Sequence record: OR498728.1
Direction: 5' to 3' (one strand)
Length of the DNA stretch: 64,000 nucleotides
DNA from: Escherichia phage ZX4221
How positions within the stretch are numbered: the first letter of the stretch is position 1; every line of letters begins with the position of its first letter. Positions 10,307-17,308 of the stretch are shown piece by piece. The notes under the pieces are model-generated. The model was not told the origin of the DNA and searched no databases. It saw only the letters and a list, made by a program, of their open reading frames with translations. Position numbers and translations under genes: made by a program.

Positions 10307-11722
10307 ATGAGCGAATTATTTAAACATGCGCACCTTCATGCAGGTCGAACTGAAAATGGTGCTGTAAACCATACTTCATCAATGTCTGCTCTGGTAGACT
10401 TCTACAAAGCCGCTGGCTCAAGCCGTAGCAATGTAGAAATCTTACCAGACCTGTTCTACAAAGCTTTGCGTGAGGATGTTGATGTTGCAGTTCGTATTTT
10501 ACTGCATATGCGAGATGTACGAGAAGGTATGGGTGAGCGTAAAGCTTTCCGAACTGTTTTACTTCAAGCGATTGAAGATAAGGTTTTAGAACCTACACAG
10601 GTTCTTCGCATTATGGATAAGATTGCAGAGCTTGGTCGTTTTGATGACTTCAAAATCTTCGTAGGTACTCGTTTTGAGACAGATGCCTTCAAACATTTAG
10701 AAGCAGCATTACTAGACCCTGCAACAGCAGGTTTAGCGGCTAAGTGGTTACCACGAGTAAAACCACGCCACAAACAGTTTGTAAAACGTTTCTGTAAGTT
10801 TGCAAACTTAAGTGAGAAGGAGTATCGCACACTGTTATCTGCACTGTCCGATACGGTTGAGCAAAAAATCTCTGCTAATGAGTTTGGTAAGATTGACTAC
10901 AGCAAGATTCCTTCACTCGCTGCTGCACGTTACCAAAAGCTCTTTAACCGTAAAGATGGTGAACGTTACAAAGCTTATATCGAGTCACTCTCAAAGGGTG
11001 AGGCTAAGATTAACGCTGGTGCTGTTTACCCATACGATGTGATTAAATCTATCAAGTATGGTAATGCAGGTGTTGCTAATGAGCAGTGGAAAGCACTACC
11101 AAACTGGATGGCAGAGGGTGAAAACATCTTGTGTATGACTGATGTTTCAAGCTCAATGTCTTGGGTGAATCTTGGTTCAATCACTGCCCTTGATATTGGC
11201 GTATCACTTGCCTTGTATGTAGCAGAACGCAATACAGGTTGCTTTAAGAATGAGTTAATGGTTTATTCAACAAACCCTCACTTCATCGAACTGAGTGGTG
11301 ATTTGAGAAACCGTCACCGTCAGGTAATGCGTCATGTTGAATATGGTTCAACTAACTTACAAGCAGCTTTTGACCGCATTCTTGAAATAGGTAAGAGAAA
11401 CAACTTGACTCAGAAAGATATGCCAAGTAAGCTTATTATCTTCTCTGATATGGAGTTTAATCAGGTTGATGGTGCAAATGGTCGTACAAACTTTGAAGCA
11501 ATTCAGAGTAAGTACAAAAAAGCTGGATACGAAATGCCACAACTAGTATTCTGGTACTTAGCAAACCGTAATGGTACTTGCGAAGTATCTGTTAAAGATA
11601 ATGGTGTAGCAATGGTATCAGGGTTCTCTCCAGCCACTTTAAAAGCTCTGCTTGGTGGTGAGAAGTTTGACCCAATCAACGTAATGCTCAAAGCAGTAAT
11701 GGTTGACCGTTACATCTGGTAA
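10307..11722 (+). CDS. vWA (MIDAS) domain protein, putatively Ro60/TROVE-like RNA-binding protein
   Basis: 471 aa; C-terminal half has MIDAS-like TDVSSSM ... GSTN ... FSDME; N-terminal TENGAV...ALVDFYKAAGSSR resembles the start of TROVE domains from memory; good RBS; gene is certain, TROVE assignment is inference. Confidence 0.6.
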   Translation: MSELFKHAHLHAGRTENGAVNHTSSMSALVDFYKAAGSSRSNVEILPDLFYKALREDVDVAVRILLHMRDVREGMGERKAFRTVLLQAIEDKVLEPTQVLRIMDKIAELGRFDDFKIFVGTRFETDAFKHLEAALLDPATAGLAAKWLPRVKPRHKQFVKRFCKFANLSEKEYRTLLSALSDTVEQKISANEFGKIDYSKIPSLAAARYQKLFNRKDGERYKAYIESLSKGEAKINAGAVYPYDVIKSIKYGNAGVANEQWKALPNWMAEGENILCMTDVSSSMSWVNLGSITALDIGVSLALYVAERNTGCFKNELMVYSTNPHFIELSGDLRNRHRQVMRHVEYGSTNLQAAFDRILEIGKRNNLTQKDMPSKLIIFSDMEFNQVDGANGRTNFEAIQSKYKKAGYEMPQLVFWYLANRNGTCEVSVKDNGVAMVSGFSPATLKALLGGEKFDPINVMLKAVMVDRYIW

Positions 11723-11730
11723 AAAGTTTA

Positions 11731-11768
11731 AAAAGGGTATTGACAATGTGTTTAATACCCTTTAATAT
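11731..11768 (+). promoter_or_regulatory. Sigma70-like promoter for the tRNA array, embedded in a hairpin
   Basis: TTGACA 11740-45, 17 nt spacer, TAATAT 11763-68; flanked by 9 bp inverted repeat AAAGGGTAT/ATACCCTTT. Confidence 0.55.
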
Positions 11769-11830: not shown

Positions 11831-11860
11831 TTGACAACCACTAAAAAATAATGTTAAAGT
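11831..11860 (+). promoter_or_regulatory. Possible second promoter upstream of first tRNA
   Basis: TTGACA at 11831-36 with weak -10 about 17-18 nt downstream. Confidence 0.3.
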
Positions 11861-11886: not shown

Positions 11887-11963
11887 CTCTGTTTAGCTCA
11901 GCTTGGTAGAGCGTTCCGTTTGGGGCGGTAAGGCCGGAGGTTCAAGTCCTCCAACAGAGACCA
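11887..11963 (+). tRNA. tRNA-Pro (anticodon TGG)
   Basis: Hand-folded: acceptor CTCTGTT/AACAGAG, D-stem GCTC/GAGC, anticodon loop TTTGGGG, T-arm GGAGG-TTCAAGT-CCTCC, CCA encoded. Confidence 0.75.
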
Positions 11964-11970
11964 AATTAAT

Positions 11971-12048
11971 GTTCCAGTAGACAAAACGGTAAAGTCACCA
12001 CTCTTTCAAAGTGGATATTTGAGGGTTCAAATCCCTTCTGGAACGCCA
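11971..12048 (+). tRNA. tRNA-Glu (anticodon TTC)
   Basis: Acceptor GTTCCAG/CTGGAAC, anticodon stem CCACT/AGTGG with loop CTTTCAA, T-loop TTCAAAT, CCA encoded. Confidence 0.7.
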
Positions 12049-12055
12049 GTCTTGA

Positions 12056-12128
12056 CAGAAGACCAATTGCAGCAAACTTAATCTTATTCATCTGACACGA
12101 AATCGGACAAAGAAGAGATTTGGTCTGG
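12056..12128 (+). ncRNA. Stem-closed structured element A (CAGAAGACC ... GGTCTGG family), Y-RNA-like candidate
   Basis: 5' CAGAAGACCAA pairs with 3' TTGGTCTGG (7 bp); conserved 5' box CAGAAGACCnnnTnCAGCAA; inner hairpin AATCT/AGATT; directly follows tRNA-Glu. Confidence 0.4.
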
Positions 12129-12139
12129 TCATTAAGAAT

Positions 12140-12216
12140 TGCGGGTATAGAGAAAGGGCGTCTCACATGTCTCATTAGCATGGTATCGGCAGGTTCGACT
12201 CCTGCACCCGCCTCCA
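12140..12216 (+). tRNA. tRNA-Met (anticodon CAT), copy 1
   Basis: T-arm GCAGG-TTCGACT-CCTGC, acceptor TGCGGGT/ACCCGCC with mismatch at pair 1-72, anticodon loop CTCATTA; CCA encoded. Confidence 0.6.
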
Positions 12217-12222
12217 ATTTTG

Positions 12223-12283
12223 CAGAAGACCGTATTCAGCAACAAACTACTTTTTGCGGATAAAAGAAAAAAACACGGTCTGG
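12223..12283 (+). ncRNA. Stem-closed structured element B (same family)
   Basis: 5' CAGAAGACCGT pairs with 3' ACGGTCTGG (7 bp); same 5' box as element A. Confidence 0.4.
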
Positions 12284-12294
12284 CAATGTATTAA

Positions 12295-12371
12295 GGTTAG
12301 GAAGCACATAAGGTATGTGCGGTCGCCTGTTAAGCGAATGGCACAGGGTTCGAATCCCTGACTAACCGCCA
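12295..12371 (+). tRNA. tRNA-Asn (anticodon GTT)
   Basis: D-stem GCAC/GTGC, anticodon loop CTGTTAA, T-arm CAGGG-TTCGAAT-CCCTG, acceptor GGTTAGG/ACTAACC, CCA encoded. Confidence 0.7.
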
Positions 12372-12380
12372 AATTTAAAT

Positions 12381-12468
12381 GTGTCGTTATCCCGTAGATG
12401 GTAGCGGTGGGGACTGTAAATCCCTTGTCATTGAGACTCGGTAGGTTCGACTCCTACACGGCACACCA
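12381..12468 (+). tRNA. tRNA-Tyr (anticodon GTA), long variable arm
   Basis: 88 nt; acceptor GTGTCGT/ACGGCAC, anticodon stem GGGGA/TCCCT loop CTGTAAA, T-arm GTAGG-TTCGACT-CCTAC, CCA encoded. Confidence 0.7.
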
Positions 12469-12474
12469 AATAAA

Positions 12475-12552
12475 GGTTATGTAGTTTAATCTGGTTAAAA
12501 TACTCCCCTGTCACGGGAGATGATGAGGGTTCAAATCCCTTCGTAACCGCCA
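12475..12552 (+). tRNA. tRNA-Asp (anticodon GTC)
   Basis: Anticodon stem CTCCC/GGGAG perfect, loop CTGTCAC, T-loop TTCAAAT, acceptor GGTTATG/CGTAACC, CCA encoded. Confidence 0.75.
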
Positions 12553-12639
12553 AATTATAATAAGTATTTCAAGATGATGTTTTGAGAGGGCTATTTAGCC
12601 CCTCCCTTAAAGAGTTCTTACGAGTATTCTTTAAAGGAG

Positions 12640-12713
12640 CAGAAGACCAAATGCAGCAAGAATGTATGAAATTTCAAGCCAATTTAATTTTGAAAATTTA
12701 AACTTGGTCTGGC
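12640..12713 (+). ncRNA. Stem-closed structured element C (same family)
   Basis: 5' CAGAAGACCAA ... 3' TTGGTCTGG; inner hairpin AAATTTCAA/TTGAAATTT. Confidence 0.4.
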
Positions 12714-12725
12714 TCAACAAATTTA

Positions 12726-12857
12726 CAGAAGACCGTTTACAGCAAAACTTAAACAATCTATTTCTCCGGTAAAGAAAAGGCGAAGGTTCGATTCCTTCAC
12801 TCGGCAGATGTCGAGTTGGTGTAATGGTAGCACTTAAGATGATAAACAACGGTCTGG
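12726..12857 (+). ncRNA. Stem-closed structured element D enclosing a circularly permuted tRNA-like module; Y-RNA (YrlA-type) candidate
   Basis: Outer 8 bp stem AGACCGTT/AACGGTCT; inside, in order: anticodon-like arm TTTCT-CCGGTAA-AGAAA, T-arm GAAGG-TTCGATT-CCTTC, ACTCGGC-A-GAT-GTCGAGT acceptor hairpin, D-arm GTGT-AATGGTA-GCAC. Confidence 0.5.
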
Positions 12858-12860
12858 TAA

Positions 12861-12999
12861 TTATCTTTGTAGATAAGTTATTAAGCTTCCCTGTGAGTAT
12901 GCGACCACAAAGGTGAAAGGGTAGATTCTAGATTTAACCCGAAAAGACACATCGCTACAGACCTTAAGCAAGTCTGGGTAGCTTATCTACAAAGATAAT
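12861..12999 (+). ncRNA. Structured element bounded by a perfect 17 bp inverted repeat
   Basis: TTATCTTTGTAGATAAG (12861-77) and its exact reverse complement (12983-99) enclose ~105 nt with internal hairpins. Confidence 0.4.
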
Positions 13000-13004
13000 T
13001 TAAT

Positions 13005-13080
13005 GGAAGTGTAGCAGAATGGTGATGCGGCAGACTTTTAATCTGACAGGCGATGGGTTCGAATCCCTCCACTTCTACCA
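13005..13080 (+). tRNA. tRNA-Lys (anticodon TTT)
   Basis: Acceptor GGAAGTG/CACTTCT, anticodon loop CTTTTAA, T-loop TTCGAAT with imperfect T-stem ATGGG/CCCTC, CCA encoded. Confidence 0.6.
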
Positions 13081-13084
13081 ATAT

Positions 13085-13161
13085 GGTTCAGTCGCAGATA
13101 AGGTAATGCAGGGGTTTCATAAGCCCTATGAATGTGGGTTCGATTCCCATCTGAACCTCCA
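13085..13161 (+). tRNA. tRNA-Met (anticodon CAT), copy 2 (initiator, elongator or Ile-lysidine not resolved)
   Basis: Acceptor GGTTCAG/CTGAACC perfect, anticodon stem GGGGT/GCCCT loop TTCATAA, T-arm GTGGG-TTCGATT-CCCAT, CCA encoded. Confidence 0.7.
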
Positions 13162-13162
13162 A

Positions 13163-13238
13163 GCTGGTATAGTTAAGAAGGTTATAACACTCCCCTGATA
13201 AGGGAACATCGGTGGTTCGATTCCACCTACCAGTACCA
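13163..13238 (+). tRNA. tRNA-Ile (anticodon GAT)
   Basis: D-stem GTTA/TAAC, anticodon loop CTGATAA, T-arm GGTGG-TTCGATT-CCACC, acceptor GCTGGTA/TACCAGT, CCA encoded. Confidence 0.7.
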
Positions 13239-13253
13239 ATTCCAATAAAGTTG

Positions 13254-13282
13254 TTGACATTGAGATGTGACCACTTTATAGT
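13254..13282 (+). promoter_or_regulatory. Internal sigma70-like promoter within tRNA array
   Basis: TTGACA 13254-59, 17 nt spacer, TATAGT 13277-82. Confidence 0.55.
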
Positions 13283-13574
13283 AACTAAAATACTTCATAA
13301 TATGTATAATTCAAACACCAATACATGAGTGTTAGACGTAACACAATGTGGGGAAATTTGTTGTACATATTCTGAATAGTTTTCGTTGCGTAGCGTCTAT
13401 TTTGCAAACTTAAAATAAATGCAAACGACAATGTTTTTCTGGCAGTAGCTTGATAGGCTAAACACCAGTGAGGTCTTCCAACCCCTCATCAAAGAATTTG
13501 GCGTACTCGCCCACGGTATGATTAATAAGGTGGGCATCTTTAAGGGCTTTTTAAGAGAGTCTTTAAAGATTAAT

Positions 13575-13651
13575 GCACCCTTAGTTCAACTGGACAGAGC
13601 AAATGACTTCTAATCATTGAGTTACAGGTTCGAATCCTGTAGGGTGTGCCA
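13575..13651 (+). tRNA. tRNA-Arg (anticodon TCT)
   Basis: Anticodon stem AATGA/TCATT perfect, loop CTTCTAA, T-arm ACAGG-TTCGAAT-CCTGT, acceptor GCACCCT/AGGGTGT, CCA encoded. Confidence 0.75.
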
Positions 13652-13793
13652 AATAGTTAGCAGATTGCTTAGACGACCTTATCGGGTCTCCGTGTAAGGA
13701 GGTGGTCTGTATCTCATGTTTTCCAGAACATGTAAATAATCTGAGAAGGGGCTTTACAGTGTTGCGAAAATACGGTAAGCTTCGAATTATAGT

Positions 13794-13876
13794 GTGGGAC
13801 GATGTTAAGACTCTAAGGCATGAGCAACGGCCTCCAAAACCGTTTCAAAGGGGTTCAACTCCTCCGTCCCATGCCA
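13794..13876 (+). tRNA. tRNA-Trp-like (anticodon CCA) with atypical extended D-region
   Basis: Acceptor GTGGGAC/GTCCCAT, anticodon arm ACGGC-CTCCAAA-ACCGT, T-loop TTCAACT, CCA encoded; about 8 extra nt between acceptor and D-stem, so canonical fold not achieved by hand. Confidence 0.4.
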
Positions 13877-13889
13877 AAGTCTTATTAGG

Positions 13890-13977
13890 GGTAGGTAGCG
13901 GCTAATGGTAGCCAAACTGTCTTGAAAACAGTTGCCACTGTAGAGATACGGTGAGGGTTCGACTCCTTTACTTACCG
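13890..13977 (+). tRNA. tRNA-Ser (anticodon TGA), long variable arm, CCA not encoded
   Basis: Acceptor GGTAGGT/ACTTACC, 3 bp D-stem, anticodon stem ACTGT/ACAGT perfect with loop CTTGAAA, ~20 nt variable arm, T-loop TTCGACT. Confidence 0.6.
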
Positions 13978-14235
13978 CCTAATAAGATTTTACACCGTCC
14001 ATGCTTGCTCGCATTTTCGGTTTATCCCTCGTGTATTGTCGTACACACTGATAAAGCACCTAGTAGGTGTCACGGAGAAGAGATAATATCAAGCTCTCCA
14101 AAGGTTCTAGTCACCGGATTGAACAAGACTATGCAAAGACCTAAATAGGTCTTTTTAGAGGGCTTCTAAGGTTATTACAGCTTGTTGTGGAACCTTGTTG
14201 CTTAGGTTCTTAGAAGTTCTCTAAAAAGATTTAAT

Positions 14236-14312
14236 GCACCTATAGCCCAACTGGTAGAGGCAGCAGACTTAGAATCTGCTCAGTGTGAGTTCGAATCTCT
14301 CTAGGTGTACCA
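14236..14312 (+). tRNA. tRNA-Leu-type anticodon TAG, class I (short variable arm) architecture
   Basis: 77 nt; acceptor GCACCTA/TAGGTGT, anticodon stem GCAGA/TCTGC perfect, loop CTTAGAA, 5 nt variable loop, discriminator A, CCA encoded. Confidence 0.6.
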
Positions 14313-14319
14313 AATTAAT

Positions 14320-14395
14320 GCAGGTGTAGCAAAATGGTTATGCGGCTGACTCTTAATCAGTAAGACGATGGGTTCAATTCCCTCCACCTGTACCA
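14320..14395 (+). tRNA. tRNA-Lys (anticodon CTT)
   Basis: Paralog of tRNA-Lys(TTT): acceptor GCAGGTG/CACCTGT, anticodon loop CTCTTAA, T-loop TTCAATT with same imperfect T-stem, CCA encoded. Confidence 0.6.
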
Positions 14396-14401
14396 AACAT
14401 T

Positions 14402-14477
14402 GGGGATGTAGTTTACATGGTTAAAACATAAGTTTTGCAAACTTAAGTACAGGGTTCAATTCCCTGCTTCTCCACCA
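14402..14477 (+). tRNA. tRNA-Ala (anticodon TGC)
   Basis: G3:U70 wobble pair present in acceptor stem; anticodon stem TAAGT/ACTTA perfect, loop TTTGCAA; T-arm CAGGG-TTCAATT-CCCTG; CCA encoded. Confidence 0.75.
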
Positions 14478-14483
14478 ATTAGT

Positions 14484-14558
14484 GCATCCATAGTTTAAAC
14501 GGGAAAATTACAGTCTTCCAAACTGAGGTTGAGGGTTCGATTCCCTCTGGATGCTCCA
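14484..14558 (+). tRNA. tRNA-Gly (anticodon TCC)
   Basis: Acceptor GCATCCA/TGGATGC perfect, anticodon loop CTTCCAA, T-arm GAGGG-TTCGATT-CCCTC, CCA encoded. Confidence 0.75.
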
Positions 14559-14565
14559 AATTAAT

Positions 14566-14641
14566 GCTCCTATCGTATAATTGGCTATTACGGTTGCCTT
14601 GTAAGCAACTTATCAGGGTTCGAATCCTTGTGGGAGCACCA
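14566..14641 (+). tRNA. tRNA-Thr (anticodon TGT)
   Basis: Anticodon stem GTTGC/GCAAC perfect, loop CTTGTAA, T-arm CAGGG-TTCGAAT-CCTTG, acceptor GCTCCTA/TGGGAGC, CCA encoded. Confidence 0.75.
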
Positions 14642-14645
14642 ATTC

Positions 14646-14731
14646 AGAGGTCAAGTGAAAGACCGCTGGTGTCAACTGAAGACCGTAACAAATTCCACGG
14701 AGTTGAGTTAGCGGCACAACTTCAGACCTCT
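14646..14731 (+). ncRNA. Structured element E, divergent relative of the CAGAAGACC family
   Basis: Outer stem AGAGGTC/GACCTCT; contains CTGAAGACCGTAACAAATT resembling the family 5' box; nested stems CCGCT/AGCGG and CTGAAG/CTTCAG. Confidence 0.3.
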
Positions 14732-14736
14732 TTCAT

Positions 14737-14811
14737 ACTCGCTTAGTTTATATGGTAAAACATCACCCTTACAAGATGGAGAAAAAGGTTCAAGTCCTTT
14801 AGTGAGTACCA
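14737..14811 (+). tRNA. tRNA-Val (anticodon TAC)
   Basis: D-stem GTTT/AAAC, anticodon loop CTTACAA, T-arm AAAGG-TTCAAGT-CCTTT, acceptor ACTCGCT/AGTGAGT, CCA encoded. Confidence 0.7.
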
Positions 14812-14812
14812 T

Positions 14813-14890
14813 GTTCCAGTATCCCAATTGGCAGAGGATGCAAGCTCAAACCTTGTACTAGTGACGGTTCGAATCCGTCTTGGAACACCA
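14813..14890 (+). tRNA. tRNA-Leu-type anticodon CAA, class I (short variable arm) architecture
   Basis: 78 nt; acceptor GTTCCAG/TTGGAAC, anticodon stem GCAAG/CTTGT, loop CTCAAAC, ~6 nt variable loop, T-arm GACGG-TTCGAAT-CCGTC, discriminator A, CCA encoded. Confidence 0.55.
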
Positions 14891-14895
14891 ATTTT

Positions 14896-14971
14896 GCAGG
14901 ATTAGTTCAAATGGATAGAGCAACAGTCTACGAAGCTGTTAATAGGGGTTCGAATCCCTTATCCTGCGCCA
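14896..14971 (+). tRNA. tRNA-Arg (anticodon ACG)
   Basis: Acceptor GCAGGAT/ATCCTGC perfect, D-stem GTTC/GAGC, anticodon loop CTACGAA, T-loop TTCGAAT, CCA encoded. Confidence 0.75.
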
Positions 14972-14989
14972 GATAAGTAAGAGGAATTT

Positions 14990-15232
14990 ATGCAAACATT
15001 AATCGTCGTTGAACATGAAAATTCCAATAGTATTGAGTTTGTAAGGGTTCCCACTATAGATACCCACATTTTCTTGAAAGTCGGATGGGGATGTGACCCA
15101 ATAAAAGTAGAAAATTTTATTGGTCATTACTTTGGTGGAAGACAACTTAAAAGCGTCAATTTTGAGACAATGTTACCAGAAAACTCAGAAACAAATAATA
15201 ATGTTTATCTCCTTACGAGGATTAGACAATGA
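14990..15232 (+). CDS. hypothetical protein inside tRNA array (80 aa)
   Basis: AAGAGGA Shine-Dalgarno 6 nt before ATG; stop overlaps next start (ATGA). Confidence 0.45.
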   Translation: MQTLIVVEHENSNSIEFVRVPTIDTHIFLKVGWGCDPIKVENFIGHYFGGRQLKSVNFETMLPENSETNNNVYLLTRIRQ

Positions 15233-15786
15233 GATATCTGAAGTATGCTTCATGGATTTTCCTAGCTTTGTTAGACCCATTGGCAGCAACCTTAGCAGTT
15301 ATCTTAGCACCCTTTGTAGTCCCATTCTACAGTGAGAAGAAAGGCCATCTACCTTTTGGATTCAGATGGATGGAGACATATGACAACCCGATTGATGGCG
15401 ATGAAGGTCATATGAAACGATGGGCTAAGATTAGAAAGATTGGTAAGCTCGGTGTCTATATGCAGAGAGTTGGCTGGCTCTGGAGAAACAAAGCTTATAA
15501 CTTCTCTTACCATGTGTTAGGAAGAGATGTAAAAGATGTTACTAAGTGGAAAGGTAATATCAACGTGAGTTCTGACCCTGAAGATAATCAGACAGGTTAT
15601 CTCCTAATGTGGAACAGTAATGCTTGGGGATTATTTGCTTTTATCCCATCAATTAAAATCTTTGGTAAACAATTCTACTGGAGAATTTATGTTGGATGGA
15701 AACTTAAAAGTGTTGTCCCAGAAGAAAGAGCATTCTCAAGGGAAAGAGTTATGTTGGCATTCTTTATTCATCCACTGAGAAAGTAA
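15229..15786 (+). CDS. hypothetical protein with hydrophobic N-terminus inside tRNA array (185 aa)
   Basis: ORF-track ORF; translationally coupled to 14990..15232; N-terminal WIFLALLDPLAATLAVILAPFVVPF looks membrane-associated. Confidence 0.5.
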   Translation: MRYLKYASWIFLALLDPLAATLAVILAPFVVPFYSEKKGHLPFGFRWMETYDNPIDGDEGHMKRWAKIRKIGKLGVYMQRVGWLWRNKAYNFSYHVLGRDVKDVTKWKGNINVSSDPEDNQTGYLLMWNSNAWGLFAFIPSIKIFGKQFYWRIYVGWKLKSVVPEERAFSRERVMLAFFIHPLRK

Positions 15787-15794
15787 AGATTTAA

Positions 15795-15870
15795 AGGGGA
15801 TTAGTTTACAAGGTTAAAACCTCGGTCTTTGAAATCGAAGAAGTTGGTTCAATTCCAACATCCCCCGCCA
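15795..15870 (+). tRNA. tRNA-Gln (anticodon TTG)
   Basis: Anticodon stem TCGGT/ATCGA, loop CTTTGAA, T-arm GTTGG-TTCAATT-CCAAC, A1-C72 mismatch at top of acceptor, discriminator G, CCA encoded. Confidence 0.65.
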
Positions 15871-15872
15871 AT

Positions 15873-15951
15873 GCTCCATTACTCCAATTGGCAGAGAGGC
15901 CAGACTTAAAATCTGTGTTATGTATCGGTTCGAATCCGATATGGAGTACCA
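15873..15951 (+). tRNA. tRNA-Leu-type anticodon TAA, class I (short variable arm) architecture
   Basis: 79 nt; acceptor GCTCCAT/ATGGAGT, anticodon stem CAGA/TCTG, loop CTTAAAA, ~7 nt variable loop, T-arm ATCGG-TTCGAAT-CCGAT perfect, discriminator A, CCA encoded. Confidence 0.55.
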
Positions 15952-15956
15952 AATTT

Positions 15957-16032
15957 AGCGGTATAGCATAACTGGCAATGCAGCAGTCTCTGAAGCTGTC
16001 TTATTAAGGTTCAAATCCTTATGCCGCTGCCA
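15957..16032 (+). tRNA. tRNA-Gln (anticodon CTG)
   Basis: Acceptor AGCGGTA/TGCCGCT, D-stem GCAT/ATGC, anticodon loop CTCTGAA, T-arm TAAGG-TTCAAAT-CCTTA, discriminator G, CCA encoded. Confidence 0.65.
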
Positions 16033-16063
16033 CTTCTAAGGGTTCTTACGAGAGTCCTTAAAT

Positions 16064-16139
16064 GTGGCCTTATCATAAATGGTAATGACCCATGCTGTGA
16101 ACATGGTCTATACGGGTTCAAATCCCGTAGGTCACCCCA
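16064..16139 (+). tRNA. tRNA-His (anticodon GTG)
   Basis: Anticodon stem CCATG/CATGG perfect, loop CTGTGAA, D-stem TCAT/ATGA, T-arm ACGGG-TTCAAAT-CCCGT, discriminator C; no encoded G-1 (preceding base is T). Confidence 0.7.
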
Positions 16140-16145
16140 ATTTAT

Positions 16146-16221
16146 AGTCCAAGTAGCTTATATGGTTAAAGCGCGTGTCTGAAAAACATGAGAAGAGGGT
16201 TCAAATCCCACTGGACTACCA
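16146..16221 (+). tRNA. tRNA-Phe (anticodon GAA), irregular acceptor/linker geometry
   Basis: Anticodon stem CGTGT/ACATG, loop CTGAAAA, D-stem GCTT/AAGC, T-loop TTCAAAT; acceptor pairs only as 6 bp or with a 4 nt linker to the D-stem; boundaries uncertain. Confidence 0.55.
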
Positions 16222-16237
16222 ATTTCAAAGGTGCTTA

Positions 16238-16972
16238 ATGAAAGAGATGACAGAACAAGGTAAGGAGATTTTTAATCTCTTAAAAACCGGTAGAGGGTTT
16301 TCTAATCCCCTTATTACTGGTGCAGCAGTTCTCGGTGGAACCGTAGCTGCCTCTACATCACTTGTAAGCTCTATTAGCTCTGTAACAGACCCTACAATAA
16401 AGGATAAGCTTATTGCTGCTGGACTTACAACAGTTCTGCTTAACAGCTTTACAACGAGTCTGACAAGCACTACATCAACCACTAAGACACTGACAGATTA
16501 TGGTCAAAAGTCCATTGATGAGTTTTCATCACGTATGCAGGTAGCAAAAGGATATTCCAATGTTATGGGTGCAGCAGGAGAACAAGTCGGTTGTACACCA
16601 TTTAGTGGTATTATGGGTGTTGCTACAGAATATGGTCAAAAAGCTATTGACACAATTAACAGTGCACTAGATGGTGTTAATGATGTGTTAAGTGACTTAC
16701 AAGATGCTATTGATGAAGGTCTTGATACTATTTCTGATTTAGCTAACCAAGCTGTTAGCAAGATTAATGAAGGTATCTCGAAGATTACAGCTTATGCAGA
16801 TGAAGTTGTGCAGATGATTGAAGAAGAAGCTGCCCTTATTGCAGAGTACCTTAAAACGAATATCAATGGGTTCTTAGCAGGTATCTTACCAGACTGGTTT
16901 GATGATGCTTGTAAAACTGGTGTAATTGATACTATTGCAACACCAGAAATGAAGAACGCATTACAGAAATAA
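16238..16972 (+). CDS. hypothetical Ser/Thr-rich protein (244 aa)
   Basis: ORF-track ORF trimmed to first ATG with RBS (AAAGG) that does not overlap tRNA-Phe. Confidence 0.5.
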   Translation: MKEMTEQGKEIFNLLKTGRGFSNPLITGAAVLGGTVAASTSLVSSISSVTDPTIKDKLIAAGLTTVLLNSFTTSLTSTTSTTKTLTDYGQKSIDEFSSRMQVAKGYSNVMGAAGEQVGCTPFSGIMGVATEYGQKAIDTINSALDGVNDVLSDLQDAIDEGLDTISDLANQAVSKINEGISKITAYADEVVQMIEEEAALIAEYLKTNINGFLAGILPDWFDDACKTGVIDTIATPEMKNALQK

Positions 16973-16973
16973 T

Positions 16974-17066
16974 GGAAGATTAACCCTAAAAGGTAAGGGA
17001 GCAGTTTGCTAAACTGCCAGTAGCTGAGAAATCGGTGTACCAGTTCAAGTCTGGTATCTTCCTCCA
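16974..17066 (+). tRNA. tRNA-Ser (anticodon GCT), long variable arm
   Basis: 93 nt; acceptor GGAAGAT/ATCTTCC perfect, anticodon stem GCAGT/ACTGC perfect, loop TTGCTAA, T-arm ACCAG-TTCAAGT-CTGGT, CCA encoded. Confidence 0.75.
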
Positions 17067-17070
17067 ATTT

Positions 17071-17146
17071 GAATCCGTGACAGAAATGGCTATGTGCCTG
17101 TCTGCAAAACAGGTTTATAAGGGTTCGAGTCCCTTCGGATTCTCCA
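17071..17146 (+). tRNA. tRNA-Cys (anticodon GCA)
   Basis: Acceptor GAATCCG/CGGATTC perfect, anticodon stem CCTGT/ACAGG perfect, loop CTGCAAA, T-arm AAGGG-TTCGAGT-CCCTT, CCA encoded. Confidence 0.75.
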
Positions 17147-17183: not shown

Positions 17184-17243
17184 GCCCTGCTATAAGTATT
17201 CTTCCTTTCGCTACCGAAGAGTATTTTTAGACAGGGCTTTTTT
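17184..17243 (+). terminator. Possible terminator after tRNA array (long-loop hairpin plus T-run)
   Basis: GCCCTG ... CAGGGC stem with ~42 nt loop containing an inner hairpin, followed by TTTTTT. Confidence 0.45.
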
Positions 17244-17308
17244 ACAGAGTTATACTTTATAAGAAGACTTATACAGTATGTCTCTGACGTACATTGTGGT
17301 TTCTCCTT

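Follow-up and report, generated by a model that had tools for sequence, protein, structure and literature searches.

What is encoded by a tRNA look-alike whose 3' half precedes its 5' half? The question is raised by a 64,000-nucleotide stretch of DNA from Escherichia phage ZX4221 (OR498728.1), analysed here at its full length as the window, to which all positions refer unless a locus is named. The window is DNA of a FelixO1-like myovirus (Felixounavirus) and carries 26 tRNA genes (11887-17146, + strand; ARAGORN), directly preceded by the gene for a predicted Ro60-like protein. In the 452-nt gap between tRNA-Asp and tRNA-Lys stands a tRNA-like module (12761-12834, + strand), within a region (12553-13004) that is 95-99% identical to 181 phage records. 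A first-pass annotation had offered two readings of the module, the tRNA-mimic domain described for bacterial Y RNAs or a permuted tRNA gene needing processing and ligation. Our analysis favours the former: the module quite probably serves a phage Y-like RNA of about 138 nt, here called element D and the presumed partner of the Ro60-like protein, as its tRNA-mimicking effector domain.

A complete set of tRNA arms with a closed acceptor stem

A base-for-base check of 12761-12834 bore out the arrangement described in the first-pass annotation, in which an anticodon-like arm, a T arm, an acceptor stem closed into a hairpin and a D arm follow one another in permuted order (Table 1). The tRNA-invariant nucleotides U8, A14, G18, G19, G53, T54, T55, C56, A58 and C61 are all found in the module, and its un-permuted counterpart, made in silico by joining 12810-12834 to 12761-12806 (71 nt), is called by ARAGORN as tRNA-Thr(GGU), in agreement with the claim that every tRNA part is there. 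In the native order, ARAGORN reports no tRNA in standard or intron mode (the intron run being made on 12553-13004), and the Rfam tRNA model gives a partial match of 22 bits, below 29 bits, that covers the anticodon and T arms only. All four hairpins reappear, within a long terminal stem, when 12722-12860 is folded to minimum free energy.

Acceptor strands of neighbouring tRNA genes might also pair with each other by accident. As a control, we took ordinary tRNA-tRNA junctions from the fetched loci and compared the 3' acceptor strand upstream with the 5' strand downstream. Across 55 distinct junctions the cross-paired strands formed one to five of the seven pairs, once six and never seven, whereas all seven pairs form in this module and in 9 of 12 independent relatives, which makes 10 of 13 module lineages. 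The closed acceptor pairing thus exceeds what accident provides.

Conservation of element D in FelixO1-like and Moogle-like phages

Element D is present in 252 Ounavirinae phage records, FelixO1-like and Moogle-like, and the Ro60-like protein is likewise found at 60% identity or more in 252 Ounavirinae records. We aligned 16 distinct variants of the element, which came from Felixounavirus, Mooglevirus and related contigs. Among these variants, no change affects the T arm, the stem of the D arm, the terminal stem, the box next to it or the first 24 and last 13 bases of the element, and the 3' ACGGTCTGGTAAT is unchanged throughout. The acceptor hairpin shows two-sided changes at three of its seven pairs, with 99% of the alignment cells paired, and comes in three types, ACTCGGC-AGAT-GTCGAGT, ACACG-TTACGG-CGTGT and ACCCTTC-GCCAAACA-GAAGGGT. 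The anticodon-like loop is the least conserved part and reads CCGGTAA, CGGTAA, CTGGTAA, CTATAAA or CTATGAA; in Moogle-type phages another hairpin replaces the anticodon-like arm, and the loop sequences of the ESh22 type also differ. Since position 33 is C, at least five loop sequences occur and the loop is only 6 nt long in 5 of the 16 variants, this drifting loop argues against a decoding tRNA.

Unrelated remnants lacking conserved pairing, the pattern in related phages that would speak against the proposed module, were not seen: the T and D arms do not vary and the acceptor changes are compensatory throughout these records. Judged by its sequence variation, the tRNA look-alike is a real conserved structure and not a decayed pair of tRNAs.

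A scaffold common to four elements of the tRNA operon

Element D is the last of four elements, A to D, that stand in tandem in the tRNA operon on the strand of the Ro60-like gene, 0.3-1 kb downstream of it. Their common design comprises an outer 4-bp helix, an AGA/G internal loop, an AGACC/GGTCT helix with covarying extensions and a CAGCAA box, which lies a few bases past the 5' strand and is shared by all four as (UUA)CAGCAA. The outer helix differs from element to element, being TGAC/GTCA in A, TTGC/GCAA in B, GAGC/GCTC in C and TTAC/GTAA in D, and that of element B becomes TTAC/GTAA in other phages by a change on both sides. In element D, the terminal structure consists of 4 bp, a 3x1 internal loop (AGA/G) and then 8 bp. 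The tRNA-like insert is found only in D; elements A to C measure 67-79 nt.

Other pairings and other readings of the internal loop were considered and set aside. Local hairpins between neighbouring elements, in which GGTCT would pair with the AGACC of the element that follows, were rejected, as covariation of the outer 4-bp helices and of the stem extensions is seen inside single elements. The AGA/G loop has no tandem G-A, as a K-turn reading would call for, and offers a single 3-nt bulge where a bulge-helix-bulge was looked for. A closing helix CUUAA/UUAAG around the module (12748-12752 with 12834-12838) was discarded as well, being 86% paired, without compensation and absent in several variants.

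The upstream gene encodes a protein with a predicted Ro60 fold

Element D begins 1.0 kb past the stop codon of the gene that directly precedes the tRNA cluster, on the same strand. Position and length of this gene are those of bas63_0130 in phage Bas63. Pfam recognizes DUF2828, DUF7788 and, weakly, VWA_2 in its 471-residue product, which belongs to PHROG 850 ('RNA-binding protein') and to a family found in 709 phage records, annotated in mycobacteriophages as "Ro-like RNA binding protein"; the residues D279, S281 and S283 of the DxSxS motif are invariant in this family. Sequence searches of the PDB with the protein returned no match, and only the comparison of folds was informative. With an AlphaFold2 model (pLDDT, the predicted local distance difference test, 85.9), the 12 best Foldseek matches in the PDB are all Ro60/TROVE proteins (E 4e-8 to 3e-6; 515-567 aligned columns; template modelling scores, normalised to the query, 0.38-0.66), among them frog and human Ro60, Deinococcus Rsr and the Ro60 of Thermus phage phiLo. 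Weak matches to Pfam vWA_Ro60 occur in 6 of 32 relatives. From the model, the product of the upstream gene is predicted to have a Ro60 fold.

Bas63 gp130 was described as a Ro60-like protein that counters the ppl defence, and its discoverers went no further than the guess "some tRNA genes are possibly Y RNAs" (PhageMaP, 2024 preprint). An RNA partner has been suspected in this phage group and, within the searchable literature, had not been identified before. A polynucleotide kinase is also encoded in the group (bas63_0087; L032, one of our numbered loci, 15554-16249), but the Bas63 record shows no annotation of an RNA ligase; both points are relevant to any role of a Ro60-like ribonucleoprotein in RNA repair.

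Gene and RNA remain linked in distant phages

We then considered 65 loci from distant phages whose proteins share 38-47% identity, together with mycobacteriophage Archie; where a module lies beside the gene, Archie included, the protein identity is 31-47%. On the strand of the gene and no more than 600 nt away from it, stand-alone modules made of a T arm, a closed acceptor and a D arm are present in L050 (two copies), L053, L071/L073, L111, L059, L112 and L104, and in L053, L071, L111 and L050 they stand directly upstream of it. None of them overlaps an ARAGORN tRNA, and a proper anticodon arm is often missing from the distant relatives. Each of these modules sits in the scaffold also seen in the window, made of a 6-8-bp stem, two to four mostly T/A bases, CAGCAA, a variable interior, the stem complement and G or TG. 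In Archie (L113, 5440-5760), the gene for the 'Ro-like RNA binding protein' is followed by three tandem elements of the form stem-TAACAGCAA...stem-CCAG, the series ending at a terminator-like hairpin; the T/acceptor/D module, about 150 nt downstream of the gene, belongs to the second of the three, and no tRNA gene occurs within 9.4 kb.

A strict scan for stem plus CAGCAA found 90 scaffolds on the gene strand, whereas the opposite strand gave 27 and shuffled sequences 20-31; 54 of the gene-strand scaffolds, distributed over 39 of the 65 loci, are no more than 700 nt from the gene. In 564 kb of distant loci, exact copies of the 9-mer TTACAGCAA number 35 on the gene strand and none on the opposite one. 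In addition, 5 of the 13 lineages, the Moogle type included, have an acceptor loop that encodes N73 followed by CCA (P ~1e-6 if random).

Our own covariance model, R1, scores the Felix module at 29.5 bits and ordinary tRNA-tRNA junctions at 28.2 (with rough E-values) and cannot separate them; hence it was used only together with the filter on ARAGORN overlap. Two candidates proved to be false positives: that in L070 (5895-6137) has two Rfam tRNA matches of 121 and 113 nt, i.e., tRNAs with insertions of about 45 nt, and a junction with six of seven pairs, and that in L083 is a true Met-Ile tRNA junction, also with six of seven. Chained T-arm/D-arm units, either permuted or intron-bearing, are present in L091 (7480-7980), L076 and L077, jumbo-phage contigs, where each 5' acceptor strand finds a partner at least as good in the unit downstream of it and where the intron mode of ARAGORN calls tRNA-Ala and tRNA-Val with 42-nt and 47-nt introns. 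A hairpin and then a CCGCAA box stand between such units in L091.

Two further arrangements of the scaffold were observed. That at 6328-6428 of L104 surrounds a tRNA-like fold whose arms keep the usual succession (D arm, anticodon arm with UUU, T arm), which has the terminal stem in place of an acceptor stem of its own and matches the Rfam tRNA model at 55.7 bits over model positions 5-66. In L051 (2254-2296), 83 nt upstream of the gene, the scaffold holds a minimal variant that consists of a T arm, six bases and a D arm, with no acceptor hairpin.

Comparison with YrlA and with phage Y RNAs

YrlA RNAs lie within 4 kb of the Ro60 gene on its strand, contain T, acceptor-like and D stem-loops in this order together with a GNCGAAN0-1G motif, are bound by Ro60/Rsr and are modified by TruB and DusA (PMC4201824). 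The YrlA of M. smegmatis has a 7-bp acceptor, is cleaved by RNase P and receives CCA, and tandem tRNAs are warned of as false positives for the class (PMC4201824). Element D resembles these RNAs in its nearness to a Ro60-type gene, on the same strand and within 4 kb, in the order of T arm, closed acceptor-like stem-loop and D arm with tRNA-invariant nucleotides, and, as in M. smegmatis, in a 7-bp acceptor. Sister RNAs without a tRNA part accompany it, as YrlB accompanies YrlA and elements A to C do here. The Rfam model of YrlA (RF02553) matches the modules of L059 (41.4 bits, full length), L050 (38.2), L053 (35.8), L111 (26.7) and Archie (20.2), several of them at E 1e-5 to 1e-4. The Ro60-fold gene upstream, the YrlA order of arms, modules beside homologous genes and these sub-threshold matches thus favour the tRNA mimic of a Y RNA among the two readings first offered. 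Unlike YrlA, element D is embedded in a tRNA operon, and its presumed partner belongs to DUF2828/DUF7788 and not to Pfam TROVE. We regard it as a divergent relative of YrlA that would work like YrlA, and not as a member by Rfam criteria.

A parallel in phages is provided by Thermus phage phiLo, which also encodes a Ro60-fold protein with adjacent Y-like RNAs, several per locus (PMC12135203; PDB 9KOP, 9L5Y). 9KOP is the top structural match of the 471-residue protein, with which phiLo Ro60 shares 14-17% sequence identity. In contrast to the elements of the window, phiLo Yrl1 and Yrl2 have their place upstream of the gene and were chosen for a bulge with a CGAA motif, and their description, in the passages considered, mentions no tRNA-like domain (PMC12135203).

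Several observations weigh against a Y-like RNA. In the module, A15:C48 is a non-canonical Levitt pair and position 48 varies among variants. Covariation within the Ounavirinae rests on three hairpin types and hence on few independent events, for which reason the outside control on tRNA junctions was added. Canonical YrlA closes its tRNA-like domain by a helix at the anticodon-stem position, through which the Ro-binding stem is reached; at this position element D has the local hairpin 12761-12777. The GNCGAAN0-1G motif is absent from element D, in which CAGAAGAC and UUACAGCAA stand instead; its 5' region reads TTTACAGAAGACCGTTTACAGCAA, with no CGAA, and CAGAAG is one base off NCGAAG. The Infernal search with the YrlA model, suggested at the outset as a check, went against the proposal, as it gave no match to the window's own copy at E<=10 on 12540-13010, and no relative attains the RF02553 gathering score of 69 bits. 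No Pfam TROVE match was obtained at E<=1 among 32 members of the protein family, which is DUF2828/DUF7788. Finally, gp130 alone, without phage RNAs, rescues T7 on ppl (PhageMaP preprint); therefore, at least the activity against ppl may not need phage RNAs.

A possible mode of action

If element D is a Y-like RNA, it would be transcribed with the tRNA operon, on the same strand as the Ro60-like gene and just downstream of it. Its 5' and 3' ends would pair into the terminal stem with the conserved internal loop and the UUACAGCAA box, a scaffold common to elements A to C that, by analogy with Ro60 and Y RNAs, is likely to be the docking site of the Ro60-like ring protein. The apical part would adopt a tRNA-like fold whose acceptor end is closed into a hairpin, and because of this combination it would be recognized by tRNA-handling enzymes (RNase P, the CCA-adding enzyme, TruB, DusA) while not being chargeable as encoded. 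In the lineages with N73-CCA, RNase P and 3' trimming would probably open the loop, as in the YrlA of M. smegmatis, to leave a two-piece RNA with a tRNA-like CCA end. The same analogy places a candidate RNase P site between 12809 and 12810 of the window, where cleavage is less certain because the loop of the FelixO1 type has only four bases. The resulting ribonucleoprotein may serve in RNA surveillance or in counter-defence.

Alternative explanations

Two alternatives to a Ro60-associated RNA, both improbable in our estimation, rank ahead of the others. The elements and the module could be mere punctuation of the operon, i.e., processing signals of the tRNA precursor (an RNase P site in the closed acceptor loop, RNase III/E sites in the stems) with no Ro60-like partner. 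The window's elements do stand between tRNA genes, a 7-bp acceptor stacked on a T arm is known as the kind of substrate that RNase P accepts, in line with the precedent of YrlA, and gp130 works in T7 without these RNAs. However, Archie has scaffold and module beside the gene with the nearest 9.4 kb free of tRNA genes, the scaffolds of L053, L071, L111 and L050 stand directly upstream of the gene, and the exact box is kept across very distant phages, which would not be required of a cleavage site alone.

The module could also act by itself as a tRNA decoy, closed or opened by RNase P, that soaks up a host nuclease or toxin directed against tRNAs independently of the Ro60-like protein; we give this no better prospects than punctuation. 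The mimicry extends to a full cloverleaf with an anticodon-like arm, relatives carry N73-CCA ends, the adjacent gene is a defence counter, and 26 tRNAs with a polynucleotide kinase fit a theme of tRNA repair and counter-defence. Yet a decoy leaves unexplained both the scaffold shared with elements A to C, which lack a tRNA-like part, and the tight linkage to the gene, and the module is least conserved in its anticodon loop, at which anticodon nucleases usually aim.

A genuine circularly permuted tRNA-Thr(GGU) gene, whose transcript would be cut and religated into a working tRNA, is very unlikely, so that the second of the two original readings is disfavoured. Soma et al. reportedly described circularly permuted tRNA genes in Cyanidioschyzon merolae in 2007, and Keiler et al. 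are said to have described in 2000 a two-piece transfer-messenger RNA (tmRNA) from permuted ssrA genes. The module resembles both in having the 3' half encoded before the 5' half, and its relatives, with acceptor strand, N73-CCA, spacer and 5' strand in succession, recall permuted ssrA, which yields two pieces once its spacer is cut out. In favour of a tRNA gene, none of the four arms is missing, ARAGORN accepts the sequence after un-permutation, a polynucleotide kinase is encoded by the phage, and one GenBank record annotates a 131-nt tRNA-Thr(GGT) that ends at window position 12806. This last annotation, from REP5, was rejected, as it needs GCCAATT as 5' strand (five of seven pairs) and has no D arm. 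A working tRNA is opposed by C in place of U at position 33, by the 6-nt loop of 5 of the 16 variants and the other loops of the Moogle and ESh22 types, so that no anticodon is conserved, and by the tRNA-Thr(UGU) that the phage already has. Unlike the algal genes, the module has no bulge-helix-bulge at its ends, the conserved loop being 3x1; distant relatives often lack a proper anticodon arm, and the intron mode of ARAGORN stayed empty. Unlike tmRNA, it contains neither a tag reading frame nor pseudoknots, and ARAGORN found no tmRNA.

Hardly more credible is a dead remnant without function, in which deletions left the 3' half of one tRNA and the 5' half of a tandem duplicate. Tandem duplication is indeed the likely origin of the permutation, and the Moogle-type loop GCCA-AACA looks identical to the phage's own tRNA-tRNA spacers; the compensatory changes in the acceptor, the invariant T and D arms, the retention of the module in all 252 related records and its independent occurrence beside the homologous gene in unrelated phages all oppose it. 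Small-protein coding, as minus-strand hypothetical proteins or a plus-strand micro-open reading frame in element C, is the least plausible of all: several GenBank records place hypothetical coding sequences over C and D (e.g., MZ501086.1 82748-83022, about window 12670-12950; L003 856-984; L004 389-535) and open reading frames of 30-72 residues exist, but these annotations are doubtful because length differences are not multiples of three (modules of 52, 56 or 50 nt; a 1-nt loop deletion) and the ATG of the element C frame is ATA or ATT in other phages, while variation tracks base pairing and not codons.

A resemblance to Dictyostelium Class I RNAs

The only Rfam family to match the short elements is RF01414, the Dictyostelium Class I RNAs, always at full length and on boundaries defined beforehand. 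Element B scores 22.9 bits (12228-12282) and relatives reach 28.2-31.9 bits (L071 7630-7682, L057 5410-5470, L052 5791-5851), with none at the gathering score of 41.5 bits. Class I RNAs, of about 60 nt, have a 6-bp stem joining their ends, CCTTACAGCAA beside its 5' strand, TG past its 3' strand, a variable interior and clustered genes; they are reported as unique to dictyostelids and bind CIBP, a protein with RNA-recognition motifs (PMC7919456, PMC5054030). Of four proteins pulled down with a Class I RNA, one (DDB_G0281243) has no known function. The phage elements share the terminal stem (6-8 bp), ...UUACAGCAA after the 5' strand, UG after the 3' strand, an A-rich variable interior and the tandem clusters. 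The 11-nt motif of Class I (CCUUACAGCAA) reads GUUUACAGCAA in element D, with T3, C6, C9, A10 and A11 all present; many relatives carry exact CCTTACAGCAA, and TTACAGCAA is the same 9-mer as in the Class I search pattern. Unlike Class I RNAs, the Felix elements add the outer 4-bp helix and the AGA/G loop, and they are longer than the 42-65 nt of that class, A to C at 67-79 nt and D at 138 nt with its tRNA-like insert.

We therefore put forward, as a tentative idea that may well fail, that RNAs with a terminal stem and a UUACAGCAA box form one family, the ligand of the DUF2828/DUF7788 branch of Ro60-like proteins, which would range from mycobacteriophages and enterobacterial phages to eukaryotes, Class I included, with the tRNA-like module as an optional addition that RNase P would open where N73-CCA is encoded. 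If true, this would be a lead on what Class I RNAs bind, abundant RNAs whose mechanism has been open since 2004.

Coordinates and other features of the region

Features of the locus are collected in Table 1. The 26 ARAGORN calls cover 19 of the 20 amino acids, tRNA-Trp being the one not called (11887-17146). The two sigma-70-like matches between the Ro60-like gene and the first tRNA are agreements with the consensus only, no more numerous than in shuffles, and mark a candidate start of the transcript of tRNAs and elements. Between element D and tRNA-Lys, 12855-13004 forms a perfect 24-bp stem around about 95 nt, without a CAGCAA box; none of 200 shuffles equals the stability of its fold (-45.6 kcal/mol, z = -4.96). 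At 12585-12634, the repeat AAGAGTTCTTACGAGTATTCTTTAA comes after a G+C-rich hairpin (GAGAGGGCTATTTAGCCCCTCCC), with kin at 13543-13560, 16038-16062 and 17233-17250 (families D14 and D16); hairpin and repeat may be punctuation or a regulatory signal.

Table 1. Position of the module, the elements and neighbouring features in the window
Feature	Position	Strand	Description
Ro60-like protein gene	10307-11722	+	471 residues; predicted helical ring and vWA domain, DxSxS MIDAS motif (an adhesion site that depends on a metal ion); counterpart of Bas63 gp130
Sigma-70-like match 1	11740-11768	+	TTGACA-17-TAATAT
Sigma-70-like match 2	11831-11860	+	TTGACA-18-TAAAGT
Element A	12053-12131	+	between tRNA-Glu and tRNA-Met; CAGCAA 12070-12075; repeat family D11/D12, fold, conserved in Ounavirinae
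Element B	12220-12286	+	between tRNA-Met and tRNA-Asn; CAGCAA 12237-12242; repeat, fold, conservation
Element C	12637-12715	+	CAGCAA 12654-12659; repeat, fold, conservation
Element D	12723-12860	+	138 nt; outer TTAC/GTAA, AGA/G loop, AGACCGTT/AACGGTCT stem; carries the tRNA-like module
TTACAGCAA box	12737-12745	+	directly 3' of the 5' stem strand of element D; family signature, candidate protein-binding site
Anticodon-arm-like hairpin	12761-12777	+	TTTCT/CCGGTAA/AGAAA; loop not conserved
Variable region	12778-12781	+	AGGC, 4 nt
T arm	12782-12798	+	GAAGG/TTCGATT/CCTTC; canonical G53, T54, T55, C56, A58, C61
Closed acceptor hairpin	12799-12816	+	ACTCGGC-AGAT-GTCGAGT; 7 bp, six Watson-Crick and one G-U
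3' acceptor strand	12799-12805	+	ACTCGGC
Base after 3' acceptor strand	12806	+	A
Acceptor loop	12807-12809	+	GAT
5' acceptor strand	12810-12816	+	GTCGAGT
U8 G9	12817-12818	+	directly before the D arm
D arm	12819-12833	+	GTGT/AATGGTA/GCAC; stem invariant; G18 G19 present

Implications

The elements provide specific candidate RNAs for gp130, in a stretch that in most records is unannotated or labelled as hypothetical proteins. If they are the partners of the Ro60-like protein, the concept of Y RNAs would be widened, both by a protein branch that is invisible to the TROVE model and by an RNA signature, the UUACAGCAA box, that is unlike the classical Ro-binding motif. In addition, the N73-CCA encoded in the closed acceptor loop of several lineages predicts that RNase P opens this loop and that a two-piece tRNA mimic would result.

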